Notes: generated from the letters alone by a model not told the origin. A stretch of 64,000 nt of DNA from Syntrophales bacterium (GCA_026416455.1 JAOAFE010000002.1:24212-88211), one strand, 5' to 3'; positions 49 to 52,238 are shown, counted from the stretch's first letter. Numbers and translations: made by a program.

Positions 49-1596
49 TTACTTCTTCTCCACGGTCGAGAAGAGGCGGTAAGAAGTGTCAATGGGCGGC
101 ATGAGAGGCTCGATTTCTTTGTCGGGTTCAAAGAGGTTCCCGTAGATGGGATCGTCTTGCCACCCGTCGATACCGCAAGCCCTCTTGGCTGCTGCTACGT
201 ATCGTTTCCAATCGGCACTAAAATAGAGGAAGATTTGCTGTGCTGCCCGAGATCCTTCTCCGTGGATGTGATCTATTTGATAGTAGTTATGGGTCATATC
301 CTTGATAAGACGGATGAGCTTGAGTCGGTCTTCCGTTGGCACCCCCGCTTTGGCGGCGAGATACTTCTCAATATAATCATGCGTATCCGGGTTGATCCAA
401 TCTCGGTAGGTGGGTACAGTAGTGGCTATTCCACCACAGATATCTTGAGCGATCTTACACATCTCGTGGAAGTTGTCGGCAAAGGTAAATTTAGCTGAAT
501 TGGTGAGCATGAGATCGGGGACCATAATTCCCGAGGTAGGTTCTTTCGTGCCTTTTAGGCATGACATCTCACCTAAAGAAGCTACGGTTTGGGTGATCAT
601 GGCCATCCACGCGAGTTTATTTCTTATATGTTCATATTTTTCCAGGCCGTTGTATTCGGCAATAAGTCGGACGGCCCCGGTCAGCCTTTCTAATTCGCCG
701 ACCATCTTACAGGTACCGAAGAGGCGATGGAAGCTGGCGAAACCGTAAGTTAAATCCCGAGAAAACTGCCATTCACCACACATAAACACCCGTTCCCAGG
801 GGATGAAGACGTCGTCAAAGACGATTAGGCATTCTGTCGGTTGGAGATGCCAGGCGTGAGGGTAGTCCCAAGCTGCTTCTTCACCGTAGGTGCGTGTGAG
901 AGGTTCAACGGCGATCAGCTTAATGCCCGGTGTTCCCAGGGGAACGGCGAAGGAAAGGGCATAGTCCTTGTCTTCTTCCCCATGTGTGCGGCAGGGTAGG
1001 ACAATAGCTTCATTGGCACATGGAGTGGCGCTAATATGAATCTTGGCCCCACGTACGACGATGCCGTCTTTCTGCCGATCGATCACGCGAAGATAAAAGT
1101 CTTTATGCTGTACCTGTTTGGAGGGTCTTAGACTCCGGTCTCCCTTTACGTCTGTCATCGCTCCGGTGAGACCGATGTCGTTTTTTTGCAGGTAGCGGCG
1201 ATAGTTTTCAACCCTTTCGACATAGTTAGTTCCCAGGGCGCGGTCCATTTTATTTGCCGCAAGGGTTATCGCTGCGAGGGCGTCTACTCCCATACAATGC
1301 ACCAGAAATCCTCCGCCCGAGCGAATACCGGTTACGAAGCACTCCCGGCGGCGAAGAAGATCCTCGATGGTACGAGGCGCCGTCAGTAGAAAGTTAACAT
1401 CTTCACCGTCCTCATCCTGGGTGACGAACAGGTGGCGAAAGCGTGGGTCATGGGGCATGGCAAAATCCATGGCTGCGGAACGTATGATGGTGCGCAGCAT
1501 AGGATGAGTTCTTACGTCTTTGACCCTCTCGCCTAAACAATAGACGACTCTTCCATCGTTCAAACTTTCTAAATATTGCTCAACTGTTCTAATCAT
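49..1596 (-). CDS. 4-hydroxybutyryl-CoA dehydratase / vinylacetyl-CoA isomerase family protein (AbfD/HpaB superfamily)
   Basis: 515-aa ORF. The N-terminus MIRTVEQYLESLNDGRVVY and the blocks GAMTDVKGDRSLRPS, DGIVVRGAK and DKDYALSFAVP resemble Clostridium AbfD as I remember it. The His/Cys of SFHRLFGTCK are present, but the first Cys of the AbfD CxxxC motif appears replaced (GGGFLVHCMG). Confidence 0.7.
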   Translation of the reverse strand: MIRTVEQYLESLNDGRVVYCLGERVKDVRTHPMLRTIIRSAAMDFAMPHDPRFRHLFVTQDEDGEDVNFLLTAPRTIEDLLRRRECFVTGIRSGGGFLVHCMGVDALAAITLAANKMDRALGTNYVERVENYRRYLQKNDIGLTGAMTDVKGDRSLRPSKQVQHKDFYLRVIDRQKDGIVVRGAKIHISATPCANEAIVLPCRTHGEEDKDYALSFAVPLGTPGIKLIAVEPLTRTYGEEAAWDYPHAWHLQPTECLIVFDDVFIPWERVFMCGEWQFSRDLTYGFASFHRLFGTCKMVGELERLTGAVRLIAEYNGLEKYEHIRNKLAWMAMITQTVASLGEMSCLKGTKEPTSGIMVPDLMLTNSAKFTFADNFHEMCKIAQDICGGIATTVPTYRDWINPDTHDYIEKYLAAKAGVPTEDRLKLIRLIKDMTHNYYQIDHIHGEGSRAAQQIFLYFSADWKRYVAAAKRACGIDGWQDDPIYGNLFEPDKEIEPLMPPIDTSYRLFSTVEKK

Positions 1597-1627: not shown

Positions 1628-2107
1628 TCATTTTGAAAGGCGAGTCCTGAGGTTGGAGAGACTTTTGAAGTGGCCTCGCTCTTCTTCTATTACTTGATCC
1701 ACGGTAGGGTGATCTTTTACTGGGACGAAACATTTAATTTCTTGATAGTAGAGGATGGAATCAAGTTCACGCCGAATGGCAAAATCTAAAGCTTCTTTTA
1801 CGTCTTTTATTTTGCCTAGCTCATTTTCCAGCATGTCTTTTTTGAAAATGATGTTACCGTCTACGTAGTTATGCAGATAAGCGGCGTATTCTCCATCGTA
1901 AGTTTCGGGCAGTCTTTCCTTTTCCAAGCTAGCAAAGATGCGTTCAAATAACTTGCGATGATTGGCTTCCGCTTGAGCTAGTTCTTGGAAGAGTCTCTTT
2001 ACTTCTTCGTCTCTTGCCAACTGTACGGCGAAGCGATAGAAGTTCTCCCCATTTTCTTCGATTCTCATGGCAAATTCCATAATGTCCGTCGCTTTGAACG
2101 TACTCAT
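1628..2107 (-). CDS. ferritin-like diiron protein (rubrerythrin family, no rubredoxin domain)
   Basis: The ORF track gives 1628..2122. I prefer the internal ATG (MSTFKATD...) because GAGGAGG lies 6 nt upstream on the minus strand. Two ExxH motifs (AEANH, EERGH) sit in a ~160-aa helical protein. Confidence 0.6.
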   Translation of the reverse strand: MSTFKATDIMEFAMRIEENGENFYRFAVQLARDEEVKRLFQELAQAEANHRKLFERIFASLEKERLPETYDGEYAAYLHNYVDGNIIFKKDMLENELGKIKDVKEALDFAIRRELDSILYYQEIKCFVPVKDHPTVDQVIEEERGHFKSLSNLRTRLSK

Positions 2108-2204
2108 TTTTTTCCTCCTCAAATTTTATGGTTTCTATATAGGGTAAAAGGGGCCTTCGTCTCAATATAATTTTTGTCCCTGTTGTAACCAAGCTAAATG
2201 AGGT

Positions 2205-2990
2205 ATGAAAAAGACTATGAAATATTGGTTCAAAATTCTTTTAATTGTAACTGCTTGTTCATGTTTTGGTATGGACTCCTCATCTGCCTCCGAATGGTTG
2301 GCTTCGGGACGGTGGACAAACGACTTTGACGTTGGTCCTGCTATTTCCAGAACGCAGCATTTTTATGAAATTTTACCGCGCAGGTATTTTCCCGATATAG
2401 ACCGTTGGGAGGATATCACAAGGCTTCACGATGGGGGCATTAAATTTTCCTGGGATGAGAATTTCATGTTTCGTCTAAGCGTCAAGGGTATCAGTGGATT
2501 AAGCATAAGCAAGAGGGAAAATCTCAATTTTGCCTTTCATGTTAATTATCTCTTCGATCGTGGTAAGGTCTGGATGCGAGAGCACAAGGAGGTTTCTTCT
2601 CTGGATTTTTCTCCTGGAAAAAGTGAGGAAAACGCACGTTTTTTTTCTTATCTTTTGCCTGCCGTTGACAGGAAAAACAAAAGACTTTTTACGCTCGTCC
2701 TTCAGTATAGGGCGGGAAAAACAGACCTCACAAGAGAGAACCGGGAAGTACTCAAAGGTCTTTTTCAATATTTGAAGAGGAATCGAGACGTATTTATTGT
2801 GATTACGGGAACGGTTAATGATATCTTTAAAAAGAGAGAAGAAAATTTAATTCTCTATATGATCCGAGTCGGCAAGGTAAGAAAAGAGATGATTATCGAG
2901 GAGGGGAAGGGTGACGGCAATGGTTATCCTTGGGTAGAGGTAAAACTGCAGGAGGAGAGAATATGTAAATTCTCCAAGGAAATTAACTAG
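2205..2990 (+). CDS. hypothetical lipoprotein / secreted protein, possibly with a degenerate OmpA-like C-terminal region
   Basis: 261-aa ORF. The N-terminus MKKTMKYWFKILLIVTAC has a positive n-region, a hydrophobic core and a lipobox-like VTAC. I recognise no family. The C-terminal FIVITGTVND...LILYMIRVGKVRKEMI loosely recalls OmpA_C. The gene looks more AT-rich than its neighbours by eye. Confidence 0.5.
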   Translation: MKKTMKYWFKILLIVTACSCFGMDSSSASEWLASGRWTNDFDVGPAISRTQHFYEILPRRYFPDIDRWEDITRLHDGGIKFSWDENFMFRLSVKGISGLSISKRENLNFAFHVNYLFDRGKVWMREHKEVSSLDFSPGKSEENARFFSYLLPAVDRKNKRLFTLVLQYRAGKTDLTRENREVLKGLFQYLKRNRDVFIVITGTVNDIFKKREENLILYMIRVGKVRKEMIIEEGKGDGNGYPWVEVKLQEERICKFSKEIN

Positions 2991-3065
2991 TAAATTCTGG
3001 ATATATTTTTTGTTCAGTGATAATAATGTGTATCAGAATTCACAGCAAATGAGGAGGACATTTCC

Positions 3066-3665
3066 ATGGCGCAGCGGAGGCGTAGTCAACTCGATGTTAA
3101 AGAAAGGCAGATGAATATAGTTAAAAAGGCGGCTCGGTTGTTTTTCAAAAAAGGGTATGCCCAAACGACCATGAGGGACATAGCACGGGCAACCAAAATC
3201 AATTTGGGAAATCTCTACAATTACATAGAGAGTAAAGAAGATATTTTATGTCACATTTTCTATATGTACCATGAGCCCTTTGCCGAATGGATTGAAAAAG
3301 AAAAGATAATGGAAATAGAAGATCCTCGGGTACAGCTGGAGAAGAGTGTGGAGAAGGTAGTGGAGATGATCAATAATTACCGTAAAGAAGTACTTCTCAT
3401 GTACCGGGAAACGAGGGTATTGCCGCCTAAGTTCATGAAGAGAGTGTTGGCAACGGAAGGATCGGTGGTTAGCTTCTTTGAGGGCATTTTAAAAAGAGGT
3501 ATGGATCAAGGAGTCTTTAAGATTAAAGACCCTTTTTTTTCTGCCAATATGTTAGTCTTCCAGATGTCCCTGTATGCCCTAAGAAGTTGGAATTTAAAAA
3601 GATACTCGCAGGAAGAAATTAAGAAACTCATGGTAGAATCAATCATGGCGAGCGTTCTTCCATGA
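3066..3665 (+). CDS. TetR/AcrR family transcriptional regulator
   Basis: The N-terminal HTH KKAARLFFKKGYAQTTMRDIARATKINLGNLYNYIESKEDIL is the TetR_N signature. Length is ~200 aa and GAGGAGG lies upstream. Confidence 0.85.
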   Translation: MAQRRRSQLDVKERQMNIVKKAARLFFKKGYAQTTMRDIARATKINLGNLYNYIESKEDILCHIFYMYHEPFAEWIEKEKIMEIEDPRVQLEKSVEKVVEMINNYRKEVLLMYRETRVLPPKFMKRVLATEGSVVSFFEGILKRGMDQGVFKIKDPFFSANMLVFQMSLYALRSWNLKRYSQEEIKKLMVESIMASVLP

Positions 3666-3728
3666 TCAATCAAATTCAAGAAAATTATTGACAAAATCTC
3701 TCTATGCAATTAGGAAAATCCGCTTCTT

Positions 3729-4754
3729 ATGAACGTGCCTAGGGATTCGAAAGTGAAGATAAGTCGGAAGCGGGCGATCGAAATTATCGATCGATTCCAG
3801 GCAGCCCATGTGCTCGTGGTTGGAGATATCATGGTAGATCATTTCATCTGGGGTAAAGTTGCCCGTATATCCCCGGAAGCGCCCGTACCGGTCGTCGAAG
3901 TGCAGAAAGATAATATCATGCTCGGTGGATCGGCCAACGTTATGAATAATATCAAATCTTTGGATGGTCAGGTTTACGGGGTGGGAATTGTCGGTGCGGA
4001 CGAGATGGGAAAGAGGCTGATTGCCGAACTAAAAAAGAAAAACATAGATACGGAGGGAATTTTTGTTGAGACCGGTAGACCTACGACAATAAAGACGAGA
4101 ATTGTTGCCCACGGTCAACAGGTGGTAAGGTTTGATCGAGAAAGTAGGAAAGAAGTGAATCGGCATATGACAGAACGGATGCTGGCCCGCGTCGAGTCTC
4201 TCTTGCCTTTCATTCGGGTAATCGTCATCTCCGATTACAATAAAGGAGTGGTCACCAAGGAGCTGGTCACGGGTCTTACAAGATTGGCTGCTAATAGGGA
4301 TGTGATGATCTGTGTGGATCCCAAAAAAACGGATTTTTCCGTTTATCAGGGTGTTCACGTTATCACGCCCAATCATCACGAAGCGGAGAGGGCAATAGGA
4401 ATTGAGATCTCAAATCGGCGTTCTTTAAATAGGGTAGGAGAAGAATTGATCAGGCGTTATGCCTTTAAGGCCGCCTTGATAACCAGGGGCGAGCAGGGCA
4501 TGAGCCTGTTCGAGCGAGACACCACTATTATACACACGGAATTGCCAGCCGATGCGAAAGAAGTCTTCGATGTGACAGGAGCCGGAGATACAGCTATTGG
4601 TACATTTGCCCTGGCGGTGGCTTCGGGAGCAACTCTTAGAGAAGCAGCGTTTCTTGCAAACAAAGCGGCAGGAGTAGTTGTGGGTAAGACGGGAACGGCG
4701 ACGGTAACTCGCAGAGAGCTGAAGCGAGTGCTCAGAGATTATGGATCAGCTTAA
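3729..4754 (+). CDS. hldA: D-glycero-beta-D-manno-heptose-7-phosphate kinase (RfaE domain I type, PfkB family)
   Basis: 341 aa. VLVVGDIMVDHFIWGKVARISPEAPVPVV and the C-terminal DVTGAGDT...GKTGTATV match stand-alone RfaE kinase domains. No adenylyltransferase domain is fused. Confidence 0.75.
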   Translation: MNVPRDSKVKISRKRAIEIIDRFQAAHVLVVGDIMVDHFIWGKVARISPEAPVPVVEVQKDNIMLGGSANVMNNIKSLDGQVYGVGIVGADEMGKRLIAELKKKNIDTEGIFVETGRPTTIKTRIVAHGQQVVRFDRESRKEVNRHMTERMLARVESLLPFIRVIVISDYNKGVVTKELVTGLTRLAANRDVMICVDPKKTDFSVYQGVHVITPNHHEAERAIGIEISNRRSLNRVGEELIRRYAFKAALITRGEQGMSLFERDTTIIHTELPADAKEVFDVTGAGDTAIGTFALAVASGATLREAAFLANKAAGVVVGKTGTATVTRRELKRVLRDYGSA

Positions 4755-8566: not shown

Positions 8567-9778
8567 ATGCCGACCTACGTGTGGGAAGGAGTTACGAGAA
8601 AAGGGGAGACTAGAAAAGGAGAAATAGAGGGCCCCGATGAGGCAACGGTCAGAGGTATTCTGCGTCGGCAGGGGTTTCGAACCTTAAACGTCAAGGAAAA
8701 GCCGAAGGATATTTCCGAATATCTCACGTTTCTCCAGCCCAAGGTTAAGGAGAAAGACGTTGTAGTCTTTGCCCGTATCTTTGCCACTATGATTAATGCT
8801 GGTCTTCCCCTCATTCAGTGTCTAGATCTCTTGGCTCAGGAAGAGCAGAACAAGACGTTCAAAAAGGTTATTAAGGCTATTAAGGAGGATATTGAAGCAG
8901 GATCTACTCTAACGGACGCTCTGAAAAAGTATCCCAAGATCTTCGATGAGCTATTTGTAAATTTGGTGGCGGCTGGTGAAAGTGGTGGTATTCTTGATGT
9001 CATTTTGCAGAGGCTTTCCAATTATATGGAAAAGGCGATGAAGCTGAAATCGAAGGTCAAGGGGGCGATGACCTATCCCGCCAGTGTGCTTGTCATATCC
9101 ATTGGTGTTGTTACCCTTCTTTTGCTCAAGGTTATCCCCGTGTTTCAGAAGATGTTTGAAGGGATGGGAGGTGAGCTTCCAGCCCCTACGCAGTTCCTCG
9201 TCAATGCCAGCGCCTTCATGCAGAGTTATTTTCTCTATATGGTTGGAATCGTGGTGGCCGTGGGCATTGTTTTCAATAGGTTCAAAAGTACGGAAAAGGG
9301 GCGGTACATACTGGATGGACTTGTCCTAAAATCACCGGTCTTCGGTCCTCTGTTAAAGAAGGTAGCCGTTGCCAAGTTTACCCGTACCATGTCCACGATG
9401 ATGTCCAGTGGGGTCCCTATTTTGGAGGGGCTTGCCATCGTTAGCAAGACAGCGGGTAACGTAATTATAGAGCAGGCTTTGATGAATGTGAGGAAAAGTA
9501 TTTCAGAAGGAAAACCCATTGCCGAACCCTTAGCCGAGACGGGGATTTTCCCTCCCATGGTGGTGCAGATGATAGCCGTAGGAGAGGCCACAGGGGCTCT
9601 GGATCAAATGTTGGCGAAAATCGCCGATTTTTACGATGACGAAGTGGATGCAGCAGTCGAAGCCATGACTTCTCTTCTGGAGCCTTTTATGATGGTGTTT
9701 CTTGGTGGTGTGGTAGGTGGAATGATTATCGCCATGTACCTACCTATCTTCAAGATGGCTTCGGTAGTGGGTGGATAA
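8567..9778 (+). CDS. pilC: type IV pilus assembly / type II secretion platform protein (PilC/GspF family)
   Basis: 403 aa with two T2SSF repeats, three TM segments and the C-terminal [14 protein letters not shown]. No pilB/pilT ATPase is adjacent. Confidence 0.85.
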
Positions 9779-9782
9779 AAAA

Positions 9783-9859
9783 TGGTCGGGATGGCGCGAT
9801 TTGAACGCGCGACCCCTGCGTCCCGAACGCAGTGCCCTACCCAGCTGGGCCACATCCCG
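9783..9859 (-). tRNA. tRNA-Pro (anticodon CGG)
   Basis: Reverse complement is CGGGATGTGGCCCAGCTGGGTAGGGCACTGCGTTCGGGACGCAGGGGTCGCGCGTTCAAATCGCGCCATCCCGACCA. It has a 7-bp acceptor stem CGGGATG/CATCCCG, anticodon stem CTGCG/CGCAG with loop TTCGGGA, T-loop TTCAAAT and an encoded CCA. Confidence 0.93.
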
Positions 9860-9933: not shown

Positions 9934-10335
9934 ATGATTATCTTTGATTTAGAATGTGAGCGAGGACATAAATTCGAAGGCTGGTTTAAAGACCTGGCCG
10001 CCTTCGAAGAGCAAGAAAAGAAGAAACTTGTCTCCTGTCCCGTATGTGGCAGTGTAGATACCCGACGTCTGCCCTCCACTGTGACGGTCATGAAAAAAGA
10101 ACGCTCTTCATCACCGGAGATTTCTCCCCTCAAGTATCTGGCTATGATCCACGATTATATTGACCGACATTTTGAAGACGTGGGCGAGAGATTTGCTGAG
10201 GTGGCCCTAAAGATTCATTATGGTGAAGAAGAAAGGCGTAATATAAAAGGGACAACCACGCCAGAGGAAGAAGAAACATTAAGAGAGGAAGGGGTGGAAT
10301 TCATAAAAATTCCCCATGTTCGCTTTGATAGTTGA
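9934..10335 (+). CDS. DUF1178 family zinc-ribbon protein
   Basis: 133 aa. MIIFDLECERGHKFEGWFKD...LVSCPVCGS matches the DUF1178 N-terminal signature (C..H...CxxC). It ends 6 nt before the next ORF. Confidence 0.65.
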   Translation: MIIFDLECERGHKFEGWFKDLAAFEEQEKKKLVSCPVCGSVDTRRLPSTVTVMKKERSSSPEISPLKYLAMIHDYIDRHFEDVGERFAEVALKIHYGEEERRNIKGTTTPEEEETLREEGVEFIKIPHVRFDS

Positions 10336-10341
10336 GAGGCC

Positions 10342-12663
10342 ATGCAGCGATTGTCTTACAAGAGCATTTTGGAAGCCATTGGCCACACCCCGTTGATTGA
10401 AATTCGTCGTCTGAATCCTAACAAACAGGTAAAAATCCTCGCTAAAGTGGAAAGTTTTAATCCTGGTGGCTCCATCAAGGACCGTGCGGCCCTCTACATG
10501 ATTGAGGGTGCAGAGAAAAGGGGCGAATTGAAGCCTGGTATGACCATTCTGGAAGCCACAAGTGGTAACACCGGTATTGGTCTGGCTTTGGTAGCGGCGG
10601 CAAAGGGTTATCATCTCTGCCTTACCATGTCGGAGGGGGTAAGCGAGGAGCGAAAGAAGATTCTTCGCGCCTTGGGAGCTGAACTTATTTTTACGCCTGC
10701 CCATTTGGGCACAGATGGGGCCATTGAAGTCGCTTATCGTCTATGGCGGGAAAATCCGGGTAAATATTTCTGTACGGATCAATTCAACAATCCCGATAAT
10801 GTGAGGGCTCATTACGAGGGTACGGCAGAAGAAATATGGGAGCAGACGGGAGGAGAAGTAGACTATGTGGTCGTCGCCCTAGGTACCACAGGAACGGCTA
10901 TGGGCCTGTCACAAAAGCTAAAGGAGTATAATCCTAAAATCAAGATCATCGGAGTGGAACCCTATCTGAAACATCGCATTCAGGGCTTAAAAAACATGAA
11001 GGAGTCTTATCGACCCGGCATTTATGACCGCAAGAGGCTAGATGAGAAGATAAATATCCTCGATGAAGATGCCTTTGCTATGGCGAGAAGACTCGTTAGA
11101 GAAGAGGGGCTCTTTGTGGGTATGAGTTCGGGAGCGGCTATGTTCGTAGCCGCCCAAAAGGCCAGAGAAATAGAAAAAGGGGTAATCGTAGTGATCTTTC
11201 CCGACGGAGGAGAAAGGTATTTAAGCACCGATCTCTTCGTTCAAGAAGAAGTATGCCCCCTTTCTCTGTACAATGCCCTCACCCGTCGTAAAGAAAAGTT
11301 ACGTCCCCGGCGGCCGGGAGAAATATTGATTCATACTTGTGGACCGACGGTCCACGATGTGCCTCATTTGGGCAGTTATCGCCGATTTGTCGTCTCCGAC
11401 CTATTGAGAAGGTACCTGCTATACCGGGGATACAAGGTGACAAATCTAACAAACATAATCGATCTTGCCGATCGGACGATTCAAGGGGCGTTCAAAGAGG
11501 GTATCGATATAAAGAACTATGCGGACCGTTACGTGAAGGTGTTCCTCTCCGATTTGGAGAAACTCAACGTCGTATTAGACTCCAATTATCCAAGGGCGAG
11601 TGAGCATGTGGAAGACATGCTAAAATTGGTGGAGAAGCTGGAAGAAAAGGGATTCGCTTATGAAAAGCTCCACTCCGTGTATTTTGACATCTCCAAACTG
11701 GATACCTATGGATGTCTGTCCAACATTGACCTGCGCCAAGTGCGACTGGATAAAACCGTTGATTTTGACGATTATGAAAAAGATAGCCCCGTCGATTTTA
11801 CCCTCCTCAAAAGGGCGACCCTCCCCGAACTGAAACAGGGCGTTTACTATTCAACCAAGTGGGGGTCAGTAAGACCCAGCTGGCATCTAGAATGTGCAGC
11901 TATTGCCCTTAAGTATTTAGGAGATTGCTTCGATATCCATGTTGGGGGGGAGGATATAATCTTTCCCCATTGCGAAAATGTTTTGGCCATAGGAGAGGCC
12001 CTCACTGGCAAAAACCCAGCTGGTCATTGGATAAATACGGCACTCGTCATGGTAGACGGGAAGAAGATGTCTCGTTCCCTAAACAATACTGTGACTTTGG
12101 ACGAGTTGGAGGCAATGGGTTTTTCTGGCCGTGAGGTCAGATTTTTTCTCCTATCAACCCACTACCGGAAACCTCTCAATTATTCCATATCGACACTCAA
12201 GATGGTTCAGAATACCTTGAACCGAATAGATCACTTCGTAAGGAGGATCTTTTTTCTGCCTCCCGAGGAAAAAGGTACCGACGTTGAGCAGTGGCTATAT
12301 GAATTACGCCAGGACTTCCATGAAGCCATGGATGACGATCTAAACGTAGCAGGTGCCATGGCGGCCTTCTTCACCTTTATGAAGAAGACAAATAAGTTGC
12401 TTAACGAAGGTGGGATTTCTAGAACGGAAAAAGAAAGGGTGCTGGAGTTTCTCGGGTCTATGCATCAGGTCTTAGGCATTCTAGATTTTCCACGGGAGGA
12501 TGAAGGGGGAGAAATTGAACAATTGATTACCTTAAGAGAGGCGTTGAGAAAGGAAAAAAAGTGGGAGGCAGCGGATGAAATCAGGGAGAAATTGAGGCAG
12601 ATGGGCATCGAAGTTATAGATGCACCTCAAGGTACCCTTTGGCGAAGGGTAAAAAATTCTTGA
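10342..12663 (+). CDS. cysS: fusion protein: PLP-dependent cysteine synthase (CysM/CysK family, aa ~1-300) joined to cysteine--tRNA ligase-like enzyme (aa ~307-773)
   Basis: One uninterrupted 773-aa ORF. The N-terminal half has SFNPGGSIKDR, SGNTG, GTTGT and MSSGAA. The C-terminal half starts LSLYNALTRRKEKL...TCGPTVHD and has WHLECAA, KMSRS, DDDLN and GIEVIDAPQGTLWRR, collinear with E. coli CysRS. Confidence 0.85.
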   Translation: MQRLSYKSILEAIGHTPLIEIRRLNPNKQVKILAKVESFNPGGSIKDRAALYMIEGAEKRGELKPGMTILEATSGNTGIGLALVAAAKGYHLCLTMSEGVSEERKKILRALGAELIFTPAHLGTDGAIEVAYRLWRENPGKYFCTDQFNNPDNVRAHYEGTAEEIWEQTGGEVDYVVVALGTTGTAMGLSQKLKEYNPKIKIIGVEPYLKHRIQGLKNMKESYRPGIYDRKRLDEKINILDEDAFAMARRLVREEGLFVGMSSGAAMFVAAQKAREIEKGVIVVIFPDGGERYLSTDLFVQEEVCPLSLYNALTRRKEKLRPRRPGEILIHTCGPTVHDVPHLGSYRRFVVSDLLRRYLLYRGYKVTNLTNIIDLADRTIQGAFKEGIDIKNYADRYVKVFLSDLEKLNVVLDSNYPRASEHVEDMLKLVEKLEEKGFAYEKLHSVYFDISKLDTYGCLSNIDLRQVRLDKTVDFDDYEKDSPVDFTLLKRATLPELKQGVYYSTKWGSVRPSWHLECAAIALKYLGDCFDIHVGGEDIIFPHCENVLAIGEALTGKNPAGHWINTALVMVDGKKMSRSLNNTVTLDELEAMGFSGREVRFFLLSTHYRKPLNYSISTLKMVQNTLNRIDHFVRRIFFLPPEEKGTDVEQWLYELRQDFHEAMDDDLNVAGAMAAFFTFMKKTNKLLNEGGISRTEKERVLEFLGSMHQVLGILDFPREDEGGEIEQLITLREALRKEKKWEAADEIREKLRQMGIEVIDAPQGTLWRRVKNS

Positions 12664-12687
12664 CAAAAGAGGGGTAAAAAATTAAAG

Positions 12688-12736
12688 TTCCCAATTCGCA
12701 TCTTCTTTTAGTTGTGGGAATTTTTATCGTTTTTTC
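12688..12736 (+). terminator. weak candidate intrinsic terminator downstream of the cysteine synthase-CysRS gene
   Basis: TTCCCA (12688-12693) pairs with TGGGAA (12715-12720) across a long 21-nt loop, followed by TTTTTATCGTTTTTT. The stem is short, so confidence is low. Confidence 0.3.
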
Positions 12737-12763
12737 TAAGTTCTTTGAATTTTTGAAATACTT

Positions 12764-12836
12764 GCTGGCGTAGCTCAACGGGTAGAGCAGCTGATTTGTA
12801 ATCAGCAGGTTGCGGGTTCGAGTCCCATCGCCAGCT
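12764..12836 (+). tRNA. tRNA-Thr (anticodon UGU)
   Basis: GCTGGCG...CGCCAGC is a perfect acceptor stem. The anticodon arm is GCTGA-TTTGTAA-TCAGC and the T-loop is TTCGAGT. There is one C-A mismatch in the T stem, and CCA is not encoded. Confidence 0.88.
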
Positions 12837-12857
12837 TTCAGGGAATACCGGTTTTAT

Positions 12858-12942
12858 GGAGGGGTTCCCGAGCGGTCAAAGGGAGCAGACTGTAAATCTG
12901 CCGGCTCAGCCTTCGGAGGTTCGAATCCTCCCCCCTCCACCA
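12858..12942 (+). tRNA. tRNA-Tyr (anticodon GUA)
   Basis: Acceptor stem GGAGGGG...CCCCTCC, anticodon arm GCAGA-CTGTAAA-TCTGC, a long variable arm, T-arm GGAGG-TTCGAAT-CCTCC and an encoded CCA. Confidence 0.93.
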
Positions 12943-12988
12943 TTGATATGTGCCCGTATGTCAGGGCATGTTGAGAGGGACTGGTAAA

Positions 12989-13064
12989 GCGGGAGTAGCT
13001 CAGTGGCTAGAGCATCAGCCTTCCAAGCTGAGGGTCGCGGGTTCGAATCCCGTTTCCCGCTCCA
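12989..13064 (+). tRNA. tRNA-Gly (anticodon UCC)
   Basis: GCGGGAGTAGCTCAGTGGCTAGAGC..., anticodon loop CTTCCAA, T-arm GCGGG-TTCGAAT-CCCGT and an encoded CCA. Confidence 0.93.
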
Positions 13065-13089
13065 ATAACCTCTCATGGGGAGGAGGGCG

Positions 13090-13165
13090 GCCCACGTAGC
13101 TCAGTAGGCAGAGCACATCCTTGGTAAGGATGAGGTCACCAGTTCAATCCTGGTCGTGGGCTCCA
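13090..13165 (+). tRNA. tRNA-Thr (anticodon GGU)
   Basis: Acceptor stem GCCCACG...CGTGGGC, anticodon arm CATCC-TTGGTAA-GGATG, T-arm ACCAG-TTCAATC-CTGGT and an encoded CCA. Confidence 0.93.
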
Positions 13166-13191
13166 GTTGATAACGATGAAAGGTGCGCTCT

Positions 13192-13341
13192 ATGAGGACT
13201 ATAATTACGTTGGCTTGTACGGAATGCAAGCAAAAGAACTATACAACAACAAAGAACAAAAAGACGCTGCAGGGGAGACTGGAGCTTAAGAAATATTGTA
13301 AGTTTTGCCGGACTCATACGGTGCATCGGGAAACTAAGTAG
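13192..13341 (+). CDS. rpmG: 50S ribosomal protein L33 (Zn-ribbon form)
   Basis: 49-aa ORF below the 60-aa track cutoff: [49 protein letters not shown]. It has the CxxC...CxxC signature, GAAAGGTG upstream, and the conserved position before tRNA-Trp and secE. Confidence 0.9.
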
Positions 13342-13353
13342 AGGTGGTTTTAC

Positions 13354-13430
13354 AGGCCAGTAGCTCTAATGGCTAGAGCGCCGGACTCCAAATCCGGAAG
13401 CTGGGGGTTCGAGTCCCTCCTGGCCTGCCA
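13354..13430 (+). tRNA. tRNA-Trp (anticodon CCA)
   Basis: Acceptor stem AGGCCAG...CTGGCCT, anticodon arm CCGGA-CTCCAAA-TCCGG, T-loop TTCGAGT and an encoded CCA. Confidence 0.93.
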
Positions 13431-45674: not shown

Positions 45675-47510
45675 CTAGGGATACAACTGATAGGCCTCCT
45701 TTTCCATACCGAGGGAGAGGAGTTTTTCTTTCTTGGGCTTTCCCGTTTCCCAATCCCAATCCCGGTAGGAGTAGTACTCTCTGAGCATGATTTCCAGATC
45801 AGGTGTCTTTCCCGCCGAGCTTCCCTCTTCAAGAGCCTTCAGACATATTTTTGGTAGTTTATCTTCCGCCCTCGTCAGTCCACGTCGATTATTTATTACT
45901 CTTTTAATTGTAATCGAACGTTCTCCTGCCGTCAAAAGTACCTGGGGATCATAACCCCAACCGGTGATGGCATTTATCGCCTGACAGATGAAAGTAGGTG
46001 TATAAGGAGCGAATTTGCACAGGGTCAATGAATCAAAGAGGTCTTTGAAATTTTGGTATTTAGCCACCATTTCTGCTTTGCCTTCCGAGGCAAAACGGTC
46101 ACCGGGCAGGATGTTGTATTCTGCAATGAAGCTGCCCAGTTCGATGTTGTAGTAATCACCCTTGAGATGGCAGGCTCCTCTGGGTCCTGTGGCATAAGAT
46201 AATGCCATTCCAGAAAAGGCGCGTGGATCGTGCATAGCAACTTCCATTCCTTTGACCTGCGCTGCTTCTTCTGGGTCGCGTCCGAAATGCTCCGCCATCT
46301 TTAACGTCCCCTGAGATATGAGTTTCCCGATCCCCTCCTGACGGATGCTCATCTCTACGAGTTTTACTATTGTGGGACCATCACCCCATTTGATTTCCAT
46401 TCCTGCTTCCTCTTTGGTGAGGATCCCCAGCTCGTAAAGATACATAGCATAAGCAATCGATACGCCTAGGGAAATTGTGTCTATGCCGTGGGCGTTGCAG
46501 AGATAGTTGGCCTCGATGATGGAGTCGAAGTCGAAATTCATACATAGGGGCCCGAAGGCGATGGTGGTCTCATACTCTGGTCCGTCTACTGAATCGATGC
46601 CCGGTCGGAAGTTTTTAACCTCCCGGCCACAGCCGATCGGGCAGCCCACGCAGGCGTAATTTTCCACTACATACTTCTGACGCAAGGCTTGGCCCGTAAG
46701 CTTAGAGGCAGGGAAAACACTTTTTTGGAAGTACTTTACGGGAACGTCGCTTACTGCCATACCTAAATCAGTGTACATGAGCGTTCCATACTCGCGGAAA
46801 GCGGGGGCTACGATGTTTTGTTTGATAGCCGTCATGGCCTCTTTTGTTAGCTCTTTTATCTGTTCGGGTTCGGCGAGCTCAGTTTTCATTTTTCCTGTAA
46901 CGACGATGGCCTTAAGTTTTTTTGACCCCATGAGGGCCCCAAGACCACAGCGCCCTGCGGTTCTTCCTGCATCGTTCATGATGCCTGCCGTTTTAGCGAG
47001 GTTTTCTCCTGCAGGGCCGATTACAGCCATCCCCAGACCGGGTTGATCAATGGCATGTCGGAGACGATCCTGGGCTTCGTATATGTTTCTTCCCCAAATG
47101 TCAGAGGCGTCTCGGAGTTCTGCCTTTCCATTGTCAAGAAAGAGATAAACTGGTTCGTTTGATCGACCGATAATAAAGATGCCATCGTAGCCCGATTGTT
47201 TAAGGCGGAAAGGAAACGCTCCACCGCTCGTTGCCTCTCCCCAGTAACCCGTAAGAGGGGAGAGTCCACCTACAGCATACCTGCTCACCATGGGAATGGC
47301 ACTACCCGTAAGAGGTCCGGTGGCGAAAATGAGAGGACTCTCCGGCGCCAGGGGATCCATCTCTGGGGTAATATGGTCGTTGGTGAGCTTCGCTGCTAGT
47401 GTGGCGCCCCCTACGTACTGCTTAAAAAGCTCTTCCGAAATGGGCATATCTTCCAACTTTTTGGCCGTAAGATCTACACGAAGAAAACGTCCGTGGATTC
47501 CTTTCATCAT
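45675..47510 (-). CDS. aor: aldehyde:ferredoxin oxidoreductase (tungstopterin AOR family)
   Basis: 611 aa. The N-terminus MKGIHGRFLRVDLTAKKLE is typical of AOR_N. Also present are a Cys motif CVGCPIGCGR, and EYETTIAFG and GACHLKGD blocks. Confidence 0.9.
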   Translation of the reverse strand: MMKGIHGRFLRVDLTAKKLEDMPISEELFKQYVGGATLAAKLTNDHITPEMDPLAPESPLIFATGPLTGSAIPMVSRYAVGGLSPLTGYWGEATSGGAFPFRLKQSGYDGIFIIGRSNEPVYLFLDNGKAELRDASDIWGRNIYEAQDRLRHAIDQPGLGMAVIGPAGENLAKTAGIMNDAGRTAGRCGLGALMGSKKLKAIVVTGKMKTELAEPEQIKELTKEAMTAIKQNIVAPAFREYGTLMYTDLGMAVSDVPVKYFQKSVFPASKLTGQALRQKYVVENYACVGCPIGCGREVKNFRPGIDSVDGPEYETTIAFGPLCMNFDFDSIIEANYLCNAHGIDTISLGVSIAYAMYLYELGILTKEEAGMEIKWGDGPTIVKLVEMSIRQEGIGKLISQGTLKMAEHFGRDPEEAAQVKGMEVAMHDPRAFSGMALSYATGPRGACHLKGDYYNIELGSFIAEYNILPGDRFASEGKAEMVAKYQNFKDLFDSLTLCKFAPYTPTFICQAINAITGWGYDPQVLLTAGERSITIKRVINNRRGLTRAEDKLPKICLKALEEGSSAGKTPDLEIMLREYYSYRDWDWETGKPKKEKLLSLGMEKEAYQLYP

Positions 47511-47525
47511 CTCTTCTGCCCTCCT

Positions 47526-48797
47526 TTAAAAATCTATGTCTTTGCCTTCGTAGGCATACCGGAGAATCTTTTCACACTGGGCTTCTGTTATCGGGCGTGG
47601 TGAAAATATCGTGTCTATATCTTCCACACTGTATTTAACCAACAGGGGCATCTGACGCTCGAATTCGTCCTTTGGGATCCCCAAATCTTTCAGATTCAGG
47701 GGTACGTCCAGTGTTTTTAAGAATTCCTTCACGGTTTTTATTAAATTGTCGAAGCTTTCTTCTTCCGTTTTCCCTTCGATGCGCAAGGCGTGACATATTT
47801 CTAGGTATCTGTCACATACGGGTTTATAAAACTGAAACGAATAGGGGATGAACATGCCTACGGCCAGGCCATGATGCACCTTGAAAATAGAACCTATAGA
47901 GTGTCCTAAACTATGGGTTAGAGCACAACCACTTTGCCCGAACCCGACTCCAGCCGCACTCGCCGCCATGAGCATACGATATCTTGCTTCGCGGTCTTTT
48001 CCGTTTTTGTAGGCCCGCGGTAGGTATTTAAAAACCATTTTAATTGCCGCGATGCTCATGGCTTGGGTGAATTCATTGCCGGCTGGTGTGACGGCCGCAT
48101 CCATGGCATGGGCAAGTACATCTAGTCCTGTGCCGACGGTAAGTTTAGGAGGCATGGAAACGGTGAATTCCGGATACAGGATGGCTACATCTGGTAAGAG
48201 GTCGGCATTGGCAATCGGAATTTTTCGATGCGCTTGCGTGTCGTGGAGAACTGAGACCGCCGTACATTCGGAACCGGTCCCACTGGTGGTGGGAACGGCG
48301 ACGAAGAAGGCCTTTTTCCTCAGTCCCAACAGGACAAGAGGACTAACCTGCGATCCGAGGTCCGTAATATCTGGTCGTTCGTAAAGAATCCAAGCGGCCT
48401 TTGCTCCATCAATGACGGAGCCACCTCCGACGGCAAAGATCACATCTGGTTCGAAGGCCGTCATGGATGCGGCACATTCCTTAACATTGTCTATGGGTAC
48501 TTCAGGAAGTGCCTTCGGCCAAATTTCCGTCGTGAAACCGTTGGTGGAAAAGTAGCCCGCCGTTTTTTGGGCATATTTTTCGCTAATTTCATCCGCCACA
48601 AAGAAAGCCCTTTTTTTAGGGGCATGGGCACCGATGAAATCCGCCGTGGAAGGCCCGATTACCATCCCCTCGGGAAAGACATTAAACCCCATGATGAAAG
48701 CTGGTGTTTTAAAAATGCTAGTCATACCTTTGATGGCATCGGCCAAAGCCAAGGGTAAAATGGCCTTAATCCCCGGGTCTTCAAACCAGTAGGTCAT
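47526..48797 (-). CDS. iron-containing alcohol dehydrogenase
   Basis: 423 aa. GGGSVIDGAKA, metal-site His residues (LDVLAHAMDA, CALTHSLGHSIG), and AAGGAGGA upstream on the minus strand. Confidence 0.88.
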   Translation of the reverse strand: MTYWFEDPGIKAILPLALADAIKGMTSIFKTPAFIMGFNVFPEGMVIGPSTADFIGAHAPKKRAFFVADEISEKYAQKTAGYFSTNGFTTEIWPKALPEVPIDNVKECAASMTAFEPDVIFAVGGGSVIDGAKAAWILYERPDITDLGSQVSPLVLLGLRKKAFFVAVPTTSGTGSECTAVSVLHDTQAHRKIPIANADLLPDVAILYPEFTVSMPPKLTVGTGLDVLAHAMDAAVTPAGNEFTQAMSIAAIKMVFKYLPRAYKNGKDREARYRMLMAASAAGVGFGQSGCALTHSLGHSIGSIFKVHHGLAVGMFIPYSFQFYKPVCDRYLEICHALRIEGKTEEESFDNLIKTVKEFLKTLDVPLNLKDLGIPKDEFERQMPLLVKYSVEDIDTIFSPRPITEAQCEKILRYAYEGKDIDF

Positions 48798-49362: not shown

Positions 49363-49477
49363 TTTAATATCTTTTTTGATTTTTTACAAAAACTTTAGTG
49401 ATATCAAAATATTTCTGGTGTTTTAGTGAAAAAAATGTTTTACTGTGAAACACATTTTTCGCTCTGGAGGTTCATTG

Positions 49478-51676
49478 ATGAGAAAAGTTAATAAAGCCTT
49501 TAATGTCTTAATGGCCATGTTTCCCAGTTATGAATCATGGCTCATGTTCGTCGGTAGGGAAGAAAACACGGAGGTATTAAATGACTTGATAGATTTTGCC
49601 AGAAGAGAGGGACTACTAACTTTGGGAACGAAGGAAGAGCTGGAAGCCTTGATAAATCAGTTTCCGGGGGTGAGAAGGGTAGAAATGAGGCATTTGCCGG
49701 TCGATTTTGGCGATTTGTTGGAAAGACGCAAGGAATTCTTGAATTTGTCTGTTTCTCTTCGTTCTTGGGTCAAAAGAATAAATGCCCTACTCGATGAACA
49801 TCGTATCCGCCTGCCTAGAATTAGTAATACGATGATCACAAGATTAAAAAAGGAGGCGGCCGATACGGCTTACAAACAGGACGTCTTGAGGAGTATTGCG
49901 TTCTGGATTGGATACGATCGTCCCCAATTGGTCTCGACATGGAATTATGAGGTATTGAGAAAAATATGTGAGATAGGAATAAATGCGGGAAGTAAAGCCT
50001 TTACTCACGGCGTCCGAATTGGTTTTTCTCTCAGTGGGAGGGGAGAAGTTGTAGATCACGAGGTGGTAGGTTGGTTACGCAAAACTCTGAAAGACTATTT
50101 GGAGAGCTCTAAGGACCCATATCTGCATGCGGGTAAGGTTAAAGGCCATGACATTACCACTCTTTATGTAGATTTCCCACGAGAAGAGGGATCTGAATAT
50201 CCGTCTTCATATCGTTATTGTTTGCGCTCGGCCATGTCTTTAGCCCATCAGATAGCGGTGCGATGGTCACTTTCACCTTACTATTCGGAAAAGAGGTTTC
50301 TCGCGATCGGGCTCGCGGGAGGTGACTTTTCGATGGTGGATACACAACTGTTGCCCATTTTGAGTGTTCGCATCCCCGGAGATCCAATAATTCGAATTAC
50401 GGATTTCATCAGACAATGTCTTCTGATAAACGATGTGCGGGTGATCCTTAGCGAAAGGCCTTATGAAGTTTCCTTGTTCAATGGAGAGGTGCTTTTCGTC
50501 TGGTGGGTCCATGCCTTTTGGAACACAATTTATTTCGATTTTATTCCTGAACTTCTTTCCGATCCTGTGTGTGCGACAACGGAAGAGGCCAAATTCAGAT
50601 TAAACCGTCTACTCTTTTACCCTGAAGAGGTGCAGGATAAGAGACCCAACGCCTTAAGCATTTTTTTCCGCTTTCCCTCTAATTCACTTTTAGGTCAGGA
50701 AATTGCTAAAACCTTATACTTTCGGCGCCGCTTCTGGGAAGCCTTGGAAGTTATGAGAGTTGTGGTGGGATTAAATCCCGATGATCCAACAGCTAGAACG
50801 TTTCGCATGGCTATTTATCGTCATCTGGCCCTTTCGGCACCTTCTTGGAAGGCTGCTAATGCGATGTTAAGATTTGCCCTCCATGAGGCTCGTTATGTGG
50901 AAGATCATTGCTCCTATTTGGGTGAGGACTATTACTGTGAATATGCGGGAGTTTATTTGGAAAAGGCGATCTTGGCCTTAAAATTTTGCCGGCAAGATAG
51001 GGAAGGGGATGCCTCCGCATGGCAAGCCATTGTGTTTGATGCCATTCGGGAAGCGGCACTTCTATTTAATAAAGGAATGGCTATCTCTCCCTCGGGTGTT
51101 CGTTCGACTTTTCTCCTCCACCTGACTTTAATCTTACGTGCTGTGCTCAATGACAACCCAAATGTCTTTACCGACGCCCACTGTCCTCTCTATGGTAGAA
51201 GGTCAGTAATCAGACGTGTAACGGAAGAGGTAATGAAACAGGGAGGCTTTGTCCGGGATGACATACCAGGATTCGATACCAATAGATTTGCGGAAGATAG
51301 GATGATTACCAATTTCGAAGTTCACGATGCCGCCGTTGCCTTGGAAGCATATCGACCTACCACCTACTTCTGCCATGCCGTAGCTCTGTGGGATTTTACC
51401 GTGGTCCGTAGAATAGGAACGGCCCGAAGGGTGCACAAGATATTGGGGGAGGCAAAAAGAAGGGCAGAGGCCATGATGAAAAAAGACGTTTGTATTCGTT
51501 CCTATACTCGTTTGTACGAGGAAATCTTACCCGTGCCGGAGTTTGTCTCCCATATGGATAGATGTATTGCCCTTATCGAATCTCGGGTTGGGGAGGGTCT
51601 TTTTAAAGGAAACGACGACGATGTGATTCCAGAAAGAGATGATTACGAACCCCTTCTTATGACCCTTAACTTTTAG
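49478..51676 (+). CDS. large hypothetical regulator-like protein: XRE-type HTH, degenerate nucleotidyl-cyclase-like middle region, helical-repeat (TPR-like) C-terminal half
   Basis: Start set at the ATG 7 nt after GGAGG (ORF track start is GTG 49445). The HTH-like region is FGDLLERRKEFLNLSVSLRSW...ISNTMITRLKKE...LRSIAFWIGYD. The middle has VRIGFSLSG / ITTLYVDFP / RFLAIGLAGGDF / GDPIIRITDFIRQ in the strand order of class III cyclase folds. The C-terminal ~350 aa is helix-rich. Confidence 0.55.
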   Translation: MRKVNKAFNVLMAMFPSYESWLMFVGREENTEVLNDLIDFARREGLLTLGTKEELEALINQFPGVRRVEMRHLPVDFGDLLERRKEFLNLSVSLRSWVKRINALLDEHRIRLPRISNTMITRLKKEAADTAYKQDVLRSIAFWIGYDRPQLVSTWNYEVLRKICEIGINAGSKAFTHGVRIGFSLSGRGEVVDHEVVGWLRKTLKDYLESSKDPYLHAGKVKGHDITTLYVDFPREEGSEYPSSYRYCLRSAMSLAHQIAVRWSLSPYYSEKRFLAIGLAGGDFSMVDTQLLPILSVRIPGDPIIRITDFIRQCLLINDVRVILSERPYEVSLFNGEVLFVWWVHAFWNTIYFDFIPELLSDPVCATTEEAKFRLNRLLFYPEEVQDKRPNALSIFFRFPSNSLLGQEIAKTLYFRRRFWEALEVMRVVVGLNPDDPTARTFRMAIYRHLALSAPSWKAANAMLRFALHEARYVEDHCSYLGEDYYCEYAGVYLEKAILALKFCRQDREGDASAWQAIVFDAIREAALLFNKGMAISPSGVRSTFLLHLTLILRAVLNDNPNVFTDAHCPLYGRRSVIRRVTEEVMKQGGFVRDDIPGFDTNRFAEDRMITNFEVHDAAVALEAYRPTTYFCHAVALWDFTVVRRIGTARRVHKILGEAKRRAEAMMKKDVCIRSYTRLYEEILPVPEFVSHMDRCIALIESRVGEGLFKGNDDDVIPERDDYEPLLMTLNF

Positions 51677-51719: not shown

Positions 51720-52238
51720 ATGGAAAAAAGGATTGAGGCTTTGAAAGTCGCCATAGATAATGAGAGAAGGGAGAAAGAATTTTACCAAATTCACGCGGAG
51801 AAAACGAAAAACCCACTAGGAAAAGCCATGTTCGCACGAATTGCCGAAGAGGAGGAAGAACACGAGCAAAGGATAAAAGAGTTACACGAAACATGGCTGA
51901 AGGGAGGAAAATGGCCGGAAACGGTGCCTCTTACGGTAGGGAAGACGAAGGTGCCGGATGTCCTGAAGGATTTCCTGCAAAGGGCCAAAGAAGCGCCGCC
52001 AGCTGAGGCAGATGACTTATCAGCCGTAAGAAAAGCAATCGAATTCGAAGCAAAGGGGGCGGCCTTCTATGCTCGTCTCCGGGATGAAGTCTCGGACCCC
52101 AAAGAGAAGGCATTCTTCAATCTCCTGGCCGAGATTGAGCATGAACATTACGTGTCCCTTAAAGAAACGGAAGAATTTTTTACTGATCCAGCCGCCTGGT
52201 ACCGATTGAAAGAAAAAGGGGGCCTCGACGGAGCCTAA
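51720..52238 (+). CDS. ferritin-like diiron protein (rubrerythrin family, no rubredoxin domain)
   Basis: 172 aa. ExxH motifs EEEEEHEQ and EIEHEHY within two helix pairs. GGAGGAG upstream. It lies 43 nt after the large hypothetical gene. Confidence 0.65.
   Translation: MEKRIEALKVAIDNERREKEFYQIHAEKTKNPLGKAMFARIAEEEEEHEQRIKELHETWLKGGKWPETVPLTVGKTKVPDVLKDFLQRAKEAPPAEADDLSAVRKAIEFEAKGAAFYARLRDEVSDPKEKAFFNLLAEIEHEHYVSLKETEEFFTDPAAWYRLKEKGGLDGA

Follow-up and report, generated by a model that had tools for sequence, protein, structure and literature searches.

In Bacillus, a cysteine biosynthesis gene is co-transcribed with cysS, the gene of cysteinyl-tRNA synthetase (CysRS), in the order gltX-cysE-cysS-mrnC-rlmB ... 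rpmG-secE-nusG. The partner there is a serine acetyltransferase, the two genes are separate, and they are under T-box control. Here we describe a 64,000-nucleotide stretch of DNA from a Syntrophales bacterium (GCA_026416455.1 JAOAFE010000002.1:24212-88211, hereafter "the window"), in which one open reading frame (ORF) at 10342..12663 (+) joins CysRS to a cysteine synthase. Unlike the Bacillus partner, this one is a putative sulfhydrylase; Rfam and promoter/terminator scans revealed nothing regulatory, a T-box included. Its motifs and their conservation make it reasonably probable that the protein is bifunctional, combining a synthase of the CysM type with an active CysRS whose zinc site has three ligands, as in MshC, and that it is the housekeeping enzyme of its host.

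Several described systems resemble this protein in part. SepRS-SepCysS(-SepCysE), found in methanogens and some bacteria, likewise couples cysteine formation to Cys-tRNA formation (PMC5424206). That system is non-homologous, consisting of a class II SepRS and a fold-type I pyridoxal 5'-phosphate (PLP) enzyme acting on a tRNA-bound substrate, whereas the fusion would likely operate via free cysteine. In HisZ-HisG, a module derived from an aminoacyl-tRNA synthetase (aaRS) is partnered with a biosynthetic enzyme of its own amino acid; the window protein differs in that its core catalytic motifs are kept and the link is covalent. MshC, the mycothiol cysteine ligase and a paralogue of CysRS (3c8z), exhibits a zinc site of Cys-Cys-His plus substrate thiol like that of the fusion and carries out ATP-dependent cysteine activation (PMC9736012), but it has no anticodon-binding domain and keeps the equivalent of Escherichia coli T68 (T83). 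CysRS* of Desulfobacterales, which charges the SelC* tRNA with cysteine, is also a non-canonical CysRS in former Deltaproteobacteria (PMC9437257); it is without an anticodon-binding domain and is linked to homologues of selB/selC, and the fusion differs from it in both respects.

The fusion is described neither in two surveys of cysteine-encoding systems (PMC5424206, PMC8762117) nor in one of aaRS-like proteins from 2010 (PMC2922099), and a review of aaRS paralogues published in 2022 (PMC9437257) gives CysRS* and MshC as the only CysRS variants. No published description of a cysteine synthase–CysRS fusion was found in the full-text literature, in which many subscription journals are not covered. 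Precedents exist for the parts and their chemistries, but none is known for their covalent pairing, for a three-ligand pocket in what is probably a housekeeping CysRS, or for the series of decaying forms described below.

One reading frame for two enzymes

The ORF is uninterrupted, encodes 773 amino acids followed by a stop codon, and has a GAGAGG ribosome-binding site ahead of its ATG. Residues 10-288 (10369..11205) match the PALP domain of fold-type II PLP-dependent cysteine synthases (Pfam PF00291, 256 bits). Residues 322-623 (11305..12210) match the class I CysRS catalytic domain, a Rossmann fold with connective peptide (CP) (PF01406, tRNA-synt_1e, 275 bits), and are followed at 12316..12645 by Pfam matches for an anticodon-binding region composed of DALR_2 (residues 659-714, with DDDLN) and CysS_C (residues 722-768, with G764..W767-R). 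This is the order of the canonical enzyme (E. coli CysS, 1li5/1u0b): Rossmann/CP, stem-contact fold, DALR_2, CysS_C. At the level of families, residues 307-769 score 388.4 bits against the cysS equivalog TIGR00435 of NCBIfam (cutoff 340), and residues 10-299 score 367.2 bits against the cysKM subfamily TIGR01136 (cutoff 344.15). The fused 773-aa ORF proposed from inspection of the sequence is thus borne out by ORF analysis and domain calls.

No in-frame ATG is present at residues 270-345. In-frame GTG/TTG codons (284, 329, 340, 343) fall inside either domain and not at the junction, so that a complete separate CysRS could not arise from an internal start. Together with the recurrence of the same fused ORF across genomes, this upholds the earlier view that these are not two adjacent genes. 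The inter-domain linker VQEEVCP (residues 300-306, 11239..11259) had been read correctly, with coordinates placed 3 nt too far downstream. Its length is fixed and its sequence variable: eight residues separate YLSTxL from the CysRS start in all 93 members that can be scored by pattern. An AlphaFold2 (AF2) model built from a 46-sequence alignment folds both halves confidently (mean predicted local distance difference test score, pLDDT, 86.7), with low confidence (pLDDT <50) for the linker (294-302) and for the lid loop of the PALP domain (209-224); it depicts two well-folded modules joined by a short tether.

This fused ORF is found in no fewer than 120 distinct clusters at 90% identity, and in about 75 species. 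The conservation counts given below refer to the best 120 of these database clusters, all of which are fusions (766-803 aa), the cultured Syntrophus aciditrophicus and S. gentianae being included. The databases contain the exact same protein (P0001), encoded on a 245,704-bp contig of a Syntrophales metagenome-assembled genome (MAG). When one genome per species was scanned, 80 loci were obtained, mostly from Syntrophaceae and Smithellaceae plus some other Thermodesulfobacteriota. Both halves were seen in 78 of them, two of the 78 being broken by apparent frameshifts. The fusion is also present in the finished chromosome of S. aciditrophicus SB (CP000252.1). The sequence-only reading had allowed that the architecture might prove to be a common and already characterised form of CysRS; common it is, and no characterisation was found. 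The existence of a split gene pair in another lineage might lend some credit to an assembly or sequencing artefact fusing two neighbouring genes. However, recurrence of the fused ORF, with a linker of constant length, in no fewer than 120 clusters, at almost all of the 80 loci and in the finished genome of an isolate reduces the probability of such an artefact to a negligible level, and rules out an indel at the junction.

One MAG contig (L007) has, besides the intact copy and 3 kb away from it, a further copy of the Syntrophales type that is frameshifted into three ORF fragments (2260-4596, minus strand; FPHCENI type); this is either a pseudogene or a product of strain-chimeric assembly. In P0132 (761 aa), the representative of a 50%-identity cluster, the C-terminal half is Arg/Gly/Pro-rich nonsense. 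A fusion gene called with a frameshift is the probable cause, and some database entries of the family are probably corrupted.

Active-site motifs of the two halves

The Schiff-base lysine of the synthase half, Lys46 in NPGGSIKDR (10477..10479), is invariant in the family alignment and in 120/120 listed relatives from Desulfovibrionales. K46, S74-G78, G181-T185 and S262-G264 (the PLP lysine, TSGNTG, GTxGT and SSG) are all invariant, in agreement with the complete set of PLP residues noticed earlier. The nearest solved structure is E. coli/Salmonella CysM (260 bits), and the fusion half shares with CysM/O-acetylserine sulfhydrylase B (2bhs, 2jc3) all PLP-binding motifs and a short substrate loop. 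Equivalog cutoffs are reached neither for cysM (TIGR01138, 367 vs 394.2; NF008735, 345 vs 413) nor for cysK (TIGR01139, 323 vs 351). The mobile substrate loop, KHRIQGLKNMKESYRP (residues 209-224, 10966..11013), is gapless against CysM and about seven residues shorter than in CysK/CBS; it reads GLKNMKESY where the Salmonella enzyme has GIRRWPAEY. It also aligns without gaps to Mycobacterium tuberculosis-type CysM 3dki (40 bits) and to 2jc3 (38 bits), while over the full length the similarity to M. tuberculosis-type CysM is lower than to E. coli CysM. Lys217 sits at the position of Salmonella CysM R210 in a 38-aa loop query, the Salmonella enzyme being the sole comparison for the R220 position of the phosphate-binding loop.

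These data support the assignment of the N-terminal half as a CysM-like, PLP-dependent cysteine synthase. The association of its loop with CysM, made earlier, stands by virtue of loop length. The O-phosphoserine/thiocarboxylate chemistry then attached to it finds no clear support: the best match is enterobacterial CysM, Lys217 occupies the position mentioned above, and genes for CysO, MoeZ or Mec (ThiS/MoaD, E1, JAB) are absent among the annotated genes of the window and the S. aciditrophicus flanks. Window annotation here means Pfam on selected ORFs of at least 150 aa outside the ribosomal/rpoBC block. By such Pfam calls and tblastn with both halves, neither cysE nor a second cysK/cysM was found in the window. 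The synthase half would make L-cysteine from an activated serine and reduced sulfur through the Schiff base at Lys46, the substrates presumably being O-acetylserine and sulfide.

The residues of the CysRS half were assigned by residue-by-residue alignment to E. coli CysRS (1li5). The zinc ligand C28 corresponds to Cys333, followed by H342-L-G-S345 as the HIGH equivalent (11338..11376). W514-H-L-E-C518 (11881..11895) corresponds to W205..C209, that is, the thiolate-packing tryptophan and a zinc ligand. H543-C-E-N-V547 (11968..11982) aligns with H234-H-E-N-E238, FPHHENE reading FPHCENV, and K575-M-S-R-S579 (12064..12078) with KMSKS. H234 is thus kept (H543), H235 is replaced by C544 and E238 by V547, which confirms the valine and the extra cysteine reported before; the possibility, then left open, that a proper alignment would restore canonical motifs and zinc ligands is dismissed by the true replacement of E238. 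A further pocket change had been overlooked: the position of T68, which contacts the substrate alpha-amino group, is Ile373 (11458..11460).

Most of the catalytic framework is strictly conserved. C333, H342 and G344 are found in 120/120 clusters, as are the W, H and C of W514-H-L-E-C518, and D664-D666, N668, G764 and W767 of the anticodon-binding region. KMSRS is found in 119/120, its first lysine, its methionine and both serines being invariant, and T336 (T31/T46 equivalent), the second alpha-amino contact, in 115/120. This holds although the CysRS half is only about 56% identical across the clade, compared with 76% for the synthase half. The invariant DDDxN and G..W motifs, together with the DALR_2 and CysS_C matches, corroborate the retention of the tRNA-binding domains. 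HLGS and KMSRS had been correctly called but were taken as anomalies, which they are not. Position 345 is Ser in 77 and Asn in 36 of the 120 clusters, and N/S at this fourth position is usual in CysRS, HIGN being the most frequent form of HIGH among ordinary enzymes in a survey of 150 representatives. KMSRS is common to the whole fusion-type lineage and occurs in some stand-alone CysRS; the E. coli K269A enzyme is still active in translation (PMC5660078).

The amino-acid pocket is a different matter. Clade-wide, E. coli T68 is replaced by I/V (window residue 373), H235 by C/G (544), E238 by V/I/L (547) and H256 by N/S (565). The T68 position is Ile/Val in 120/120 clusters against Thr in 60/60 canonical CysRS, so that this substrate contact would be lost, and the E238 position is V/I/L in 120/120. 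Three of the four canonical zinc ligands (C28, C209, H234, E238) are present, namely C333, C518 and H543. Cys544 was considered as a substitute zinc ligand and rejected, since Gly, Ser or Ala occupies its position in eleven of the species loci. Of 80 positions conserved in at least 90% of the 60 canonical CysRS, Syntrophales keep 59 and Desulfovibrionales 36. Compared with canonical CysRS, to which it is about 36-42% identical, the CysRS half shares C28, C209, H234, W205, a motif of the HIGH type and the C-terminal G..WR; it differs by the 300-aa N-terminal synthase, by the loss of Glu238, T68, H235 and H256, by KMSRS and by an insertion in the CP domain (DFTLLKR..L.ELK.G) that characterises the fusion-type lineage. 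The HIGH/KMSKS signature, the anticodon domains and a TIGR00435 score above the cutoff are nevertheless all found in the window protein. CysRS is the textbook case of metal-based amino-acid discrimination, its four zinc ligands being treated as invariant; a whole bacterial order, S. aciditrophicus included, appears to translate with a CysRS lacking both the Glu ligand and the Thr68 contact.

MshC activates cysteine with a zinc ion held only by C43, C231 and H256 plus the substrate thiol (PMC9736012), so that loss of the Glu ligand is compatible with catalysis. The resemblance of the two zinc sites also bears on an earlier suggestion, that the protein is an MshC-like amide ligase joining cysteine to a small-molecule acceptor instead of tRNA. 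A gene of the PIG-L family (MshB/BshB-like fold) is located on the opposite strand, some 3 kb upstream of a split synthase–CysRS gene pair in another lineage (L084, see below). This suggestion is extremely unlikely to be correct: the score against the MshC equivalog is 201.5 bits against a cutoff of 485.1, the anticodon-binding domain missing in MshC is retained and invariant here, and no glycosyltransferase or deacetylase genes are found near the Syntrophales gene, among the annotated window genes or in the S. aciditrophicus flanks.

CARS enzymes have been reported to be PLP-dependent persulfide synthases (PMC5660078), and a genuine PLP enzyme is attached to CysRS here. The two might together make cysteine persulfide (Cys-SSH, a supersulfide), as had also been proposed, or charge tRNA with it, and the larger, more hydrophobic pocket created by E238V and T68I could in principle take a bulkier thiol. 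However, the E. coli PLP lysines K73, K76, K266 and K269 correspond to R378, Q381, K575 and R578, three of the four being absent, and the K269 equivalent is Arg in 119/120 clusters and never Lys. The synthase half is no different from ordinary cysteine synthases, and there is no sulfurtransferase context among the annotated window genes. We regard a persulfide synthase as very unlikely.

A tRNA-dependent synthesis, in which the CysRS half would load a serine derivative and the PLP half convert it to Cys-tRNA, would account for both the covalent coupling and the altered amino-acid pocket. Against it, the thiolate-recognition set C333, W514, C518 and H543 is strictly conserved and ill-suited to a serine-type substrate, and other intact fusions have a fully canonical pocket. 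The synthase half, moreover, retains the TSGNTG loop, which binds the free alpha-carboxylate of the substrate in the PALP family. Despite the precedent of SepRS/SepCysS, where cysteine synthesis is coupled to tRNA charging (PMC5424206), this scheme is highly improbable.

Split, intact and decayed relatives

Relatives of the fusion exhibit five states. In Polyangia-type MAGs the two enzymes are encoded by split genes (L084 7079-9428, also L085), a PALP gene being followed after 4 nt by a CysRS gene. The PALP product (305 aa) is 66% identical to the window half over a gapless alignment and ends with ...YLSTVLFNA, and the CysRS product (475 aa) begins with MLRLYNT; the break is located exactly at the fusion junction. 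The C-terminal G..W motif is absent from this CysRS. The fusion may be derived from, or interconvertible with, such a translationally coupled gene pair. A second group, from Desulfofervidaceae, Thermosulfuriphilus, "Desulfobacterales" MAGs and others, consists of intact fusions with a canonical pocket (NITD, FPHHENE/FPHNENE, KMSRS, C-terminal G..W[RK]). The Syntrophales clade, to which the window protein belongs, combines an intact fusion with the remodelled pocket. A fourth group is partly decayed (L054-57, L062 from a Thermodesulfobacterium geofontis MAG, and P0122).

The fifth is a large family of 760-800 aa proteins from cultured Desulfovibrionales (P0125, P0314-P0432; L083 10001-12295), among them Desulfovibrio ferrophilus, Maridesulfovibrio hydrothermalis, M. 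zosterae, Desulfocurvus, Desulfobaculum and Humidesulfovibrio. Throughout the 120 listed members, C28 is replaced by I/V/F/P/M, the His of HIGH by Asp, C209 by M/I/H/Q/V and the C-terminal anticodon Trp by L/V, and KMSKS is deleted, while the catalytic residues of the PALP half are present in 120/120, as are W205, H234 and N237. The C-terminal half of these proteins is, judged by its residues, a conserved pseudo-synthetase domain. Catalytic motifs lost and partnership kept, they are a close analogue of HisZ; the Syntrophales clade has not lost its motifs. The architecture is visible in databases but automatically annotated under one function only, Syntrophales fusions as "cysteine--tRNA ligase" and Desulfovibrionales ones (NCBI) as "cysteine synthase". 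Metabolic reconstructions consequently miss one function in Syntrophales or wrongly assume one in Desulfovibrionales.

Scores against TIGR00435 follow the state of the motifs, with 419-451 bits for the intact fusions with canonical pocket, 417 for the partly decayed L054, 364-388 for Syntrophales (the window protein highest, its clade members at 364-375), 350 for L062, 300 for P0122 and 143 for Desulfovibrionales. The highest value (517) belongs to a fusion of 768 aa from a Nanoarchaeota MAG (P0124) with fully canonical CysRS motifs. In a rough neighbour-joining tree this protein nests within the canonical stand-alone CysRS clade (100% bootstrap), which indicates an independent fusion, the two enzymes having been joined at least twice. 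The Syntrophales clade and the Desulfovibrionales-type clade are each monophyletic (100%). Bootstrap values for the backbone among fusion-type clades are below 60, and no order of decay steps is read from the tree. Related modules also occur in other architectures (P0139, P0143, P0168, P0161), including proteins of 742-995 aa that end in a PALP domain and a CysRS of 858 aa that reads FPHHECV and is extended by 397 aa at its N-terminus.

The decay of the Desulfovibrionales motifs next to an intact PALP half indicates that CysRS motifs erode when catalysis is not needed. By this standard, the invariance of the Syntrophales motifs at about 56% identity suggests that selection continues to act on two abilities, to activate a thiol amino acid with ATP and to recognise the anticodon of tRNA-Cys. 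Taken together, the invariant motifs argue for CysRS activity. We therefore favour, from conservation of this kind, a bifunctional enzyme, and we infer both activities as well as its status as the sole CysRS of the host. Its CysRS half would activate cysteine with ATP through HLGS and KMSRS, recognise the thiolate on a zinc ion with three protein ligands (Cys333, Cys518, His543), and bind tRNA-Cys by the intact anticodon-binding region. Fusion would set a 1:1 stoichiometry and proximity of the two halves. CysM-type enzymes are homodimers, so that the synthetase is probably dimerised by the fusion. Channelling of cysteine between the halves is plausible, though the AF2 model lends it no structural support.

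Several observations weigh against a bifunctional housekeeping enzyme. Four residues that are 100% invariant in the 60 canonical CysRS are altered throughout the clade, in the amino-acid and ATP pocket. A hydrophobic residue in place of E238, like the absence of T68 and H235, is also seen in the dead Desulfovibrionales domain. The Syntrophales scores are barely over the TIGR00435 cutoff and under those of the intact fusions, and the partly degenerate L062 passes it as well. The predicted template modelling score of the AF2 model (pTM 0.60) leaves the relative domain orientation undefined, with no predicted fixed interface. Finally, the C-terminal G..W motif is missing in 52 of 53 split-pair relatives, so the ancestral pair may have been accessory instead of housekeeping.

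These observations bring in the most serious competing explanation, in which an ordinary CysRS is encoded elsewhere in the genome and the fused half mainly serves its synthase partner, for example as a scaffold or, in the manner of HisZ with HisG, as a binder of tRNA-Cys or cysteine that tunes synthesis; the Syntrophales form would then be an early stage toward the dead Desulfovibrionales form. That a pseudo-aaRS can regulate amino-acid biosynthesis is known from HisZ (PMC9437257). The pairing survives complete loss of the catalytic motifs in Desulfovibrionales and partial decay in L054-57, L062 and P0122, and pairing without catalysis implies that the association is valuable beyond aminoacylation. 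The shared T68, H235 and E238 changes and the marginal cysS equivalog score fit the same picture. On the other side, the ATP, zinc-thiolate and anticodon motifs of Syntrophales are invariant over order-level divergence, unlike those of the decaying lineages, and the gene lies in a housekeeping context (see below). No second CysRS was found within the 64 kb of the window, nor within the roughly 1.2 Mb of sequence that flanks the 80 loci, only a small fraction of each genome. On balance an accessory or regulatory role appears rather unlikely.

We view with comparable doubt the idea that the pair is a dedicated coupling device and not two independent enzymes that happen to be joined. In that case the CysRS half, without Glu238 and Thr68, would bind free cysteine poorly and would need its attached synthase to deliver cysteine to it, or would sense tRNA-Cys to regulate the synthase, and the dead Desulfovibrionales domains would be a purely regulatory end-point, a "HisZ for cysteine". 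Sulfide assimilation would then be tied directly to the supply of Cys-tRNA, in a bacterial counterpart of SepRS/SepCysS.

The physical pairing itself seems to matter, since related bacteria keep the fusion with a dead loading half. The five states (split, intact canonical, intact remodelled, partly decayed, dead) form a natural series on the coupling of a biosynthetic enzyme with an aaRS. Such coupling might serve stoichiometry or tRNA-based regulation, or it might, in sulfide-rich anaerobes, channel an amino acid that is both toxic and reactive.

Genomic neighbourhood

The fusion gene is flanked by translation-related genes in the order rlmB-pilC-DUF1178-fusion-tRNAs-rpmG-secE-nusG-rplK, followed by the ribosomal/rpoBC block. 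This order, reminiscent of the classic cysS-rlmB...rpmG-secE-nusG arrangement of Firmicutes and Actinobacteria, is kept in 53-64 of the 80 loci and in S. aciditrophicus SB. Because the neighbourhood is a core housekeeping one, the bifunctional enzyme that we favour is most likely the housekeeping CysRS of Syntrophales.

Immediately upstream, a DUF1178 zinc-ribbon gene (9934..10335, plus strand; PF06676, 139 bits) is a conserved neighbour, present in 64/80 loci. It ends at 10335, 6 nt before the fusion start codon, as had been noted, but tight coupling is not general: such spacing is seen only in the window and its closest relative (L003), and the gap is 202 nt in S. aciditrophicus. Between rlmB and DUF1178 lie a PilC-family gene (type II secretion/type IV pilus; 8567-9778), whose position is kept in 55/80 loci, and, on the minus strand, a tRNA-Pro(CGG) gene (9783-9859) in an otherwise translation-related block. 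Downstream, at 12764..13430 (+), the cluster comprises tRNA-Thr, -Tyr, -Gly and -Thr, rpmG and tRNA-Trp, then secE-nusG-rplK. A permuted "tmRNA*" called by ARAGORN at 12850-13286, over tRNA-Tyr, -Gly, -Thr and the start of rpmG, has no Rfam tmRNA match and is almost certainly a false positive. In S. aciditrophicus (L081 12457-13916), the fusion is separated from the rpmG cluster by an insertion with Memo and AMMECR1 genes. A similarly long fusion–rpmG gap is seen in several other Syntrophaceae loci; the window (12664-12763) and L003 have no insertion.

Two ORFs farther out (2205-2990 and 49445-51676, the latter of 743 aa) have no Pfam match. Genes typical of anaerobes flank the housekeeping block at 49-1596 (-), 1628-2122 (-), 45675-48797 (-) and 51720-52238 (+). 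They include two rubrerythrins, an aldehyde:ferredoxin oxidoreductase, an Fe-alcohol dehydrogenase and an HpaB-family protein, possibly of the 4-hydroxybutyryl-CoA dehydratase type.

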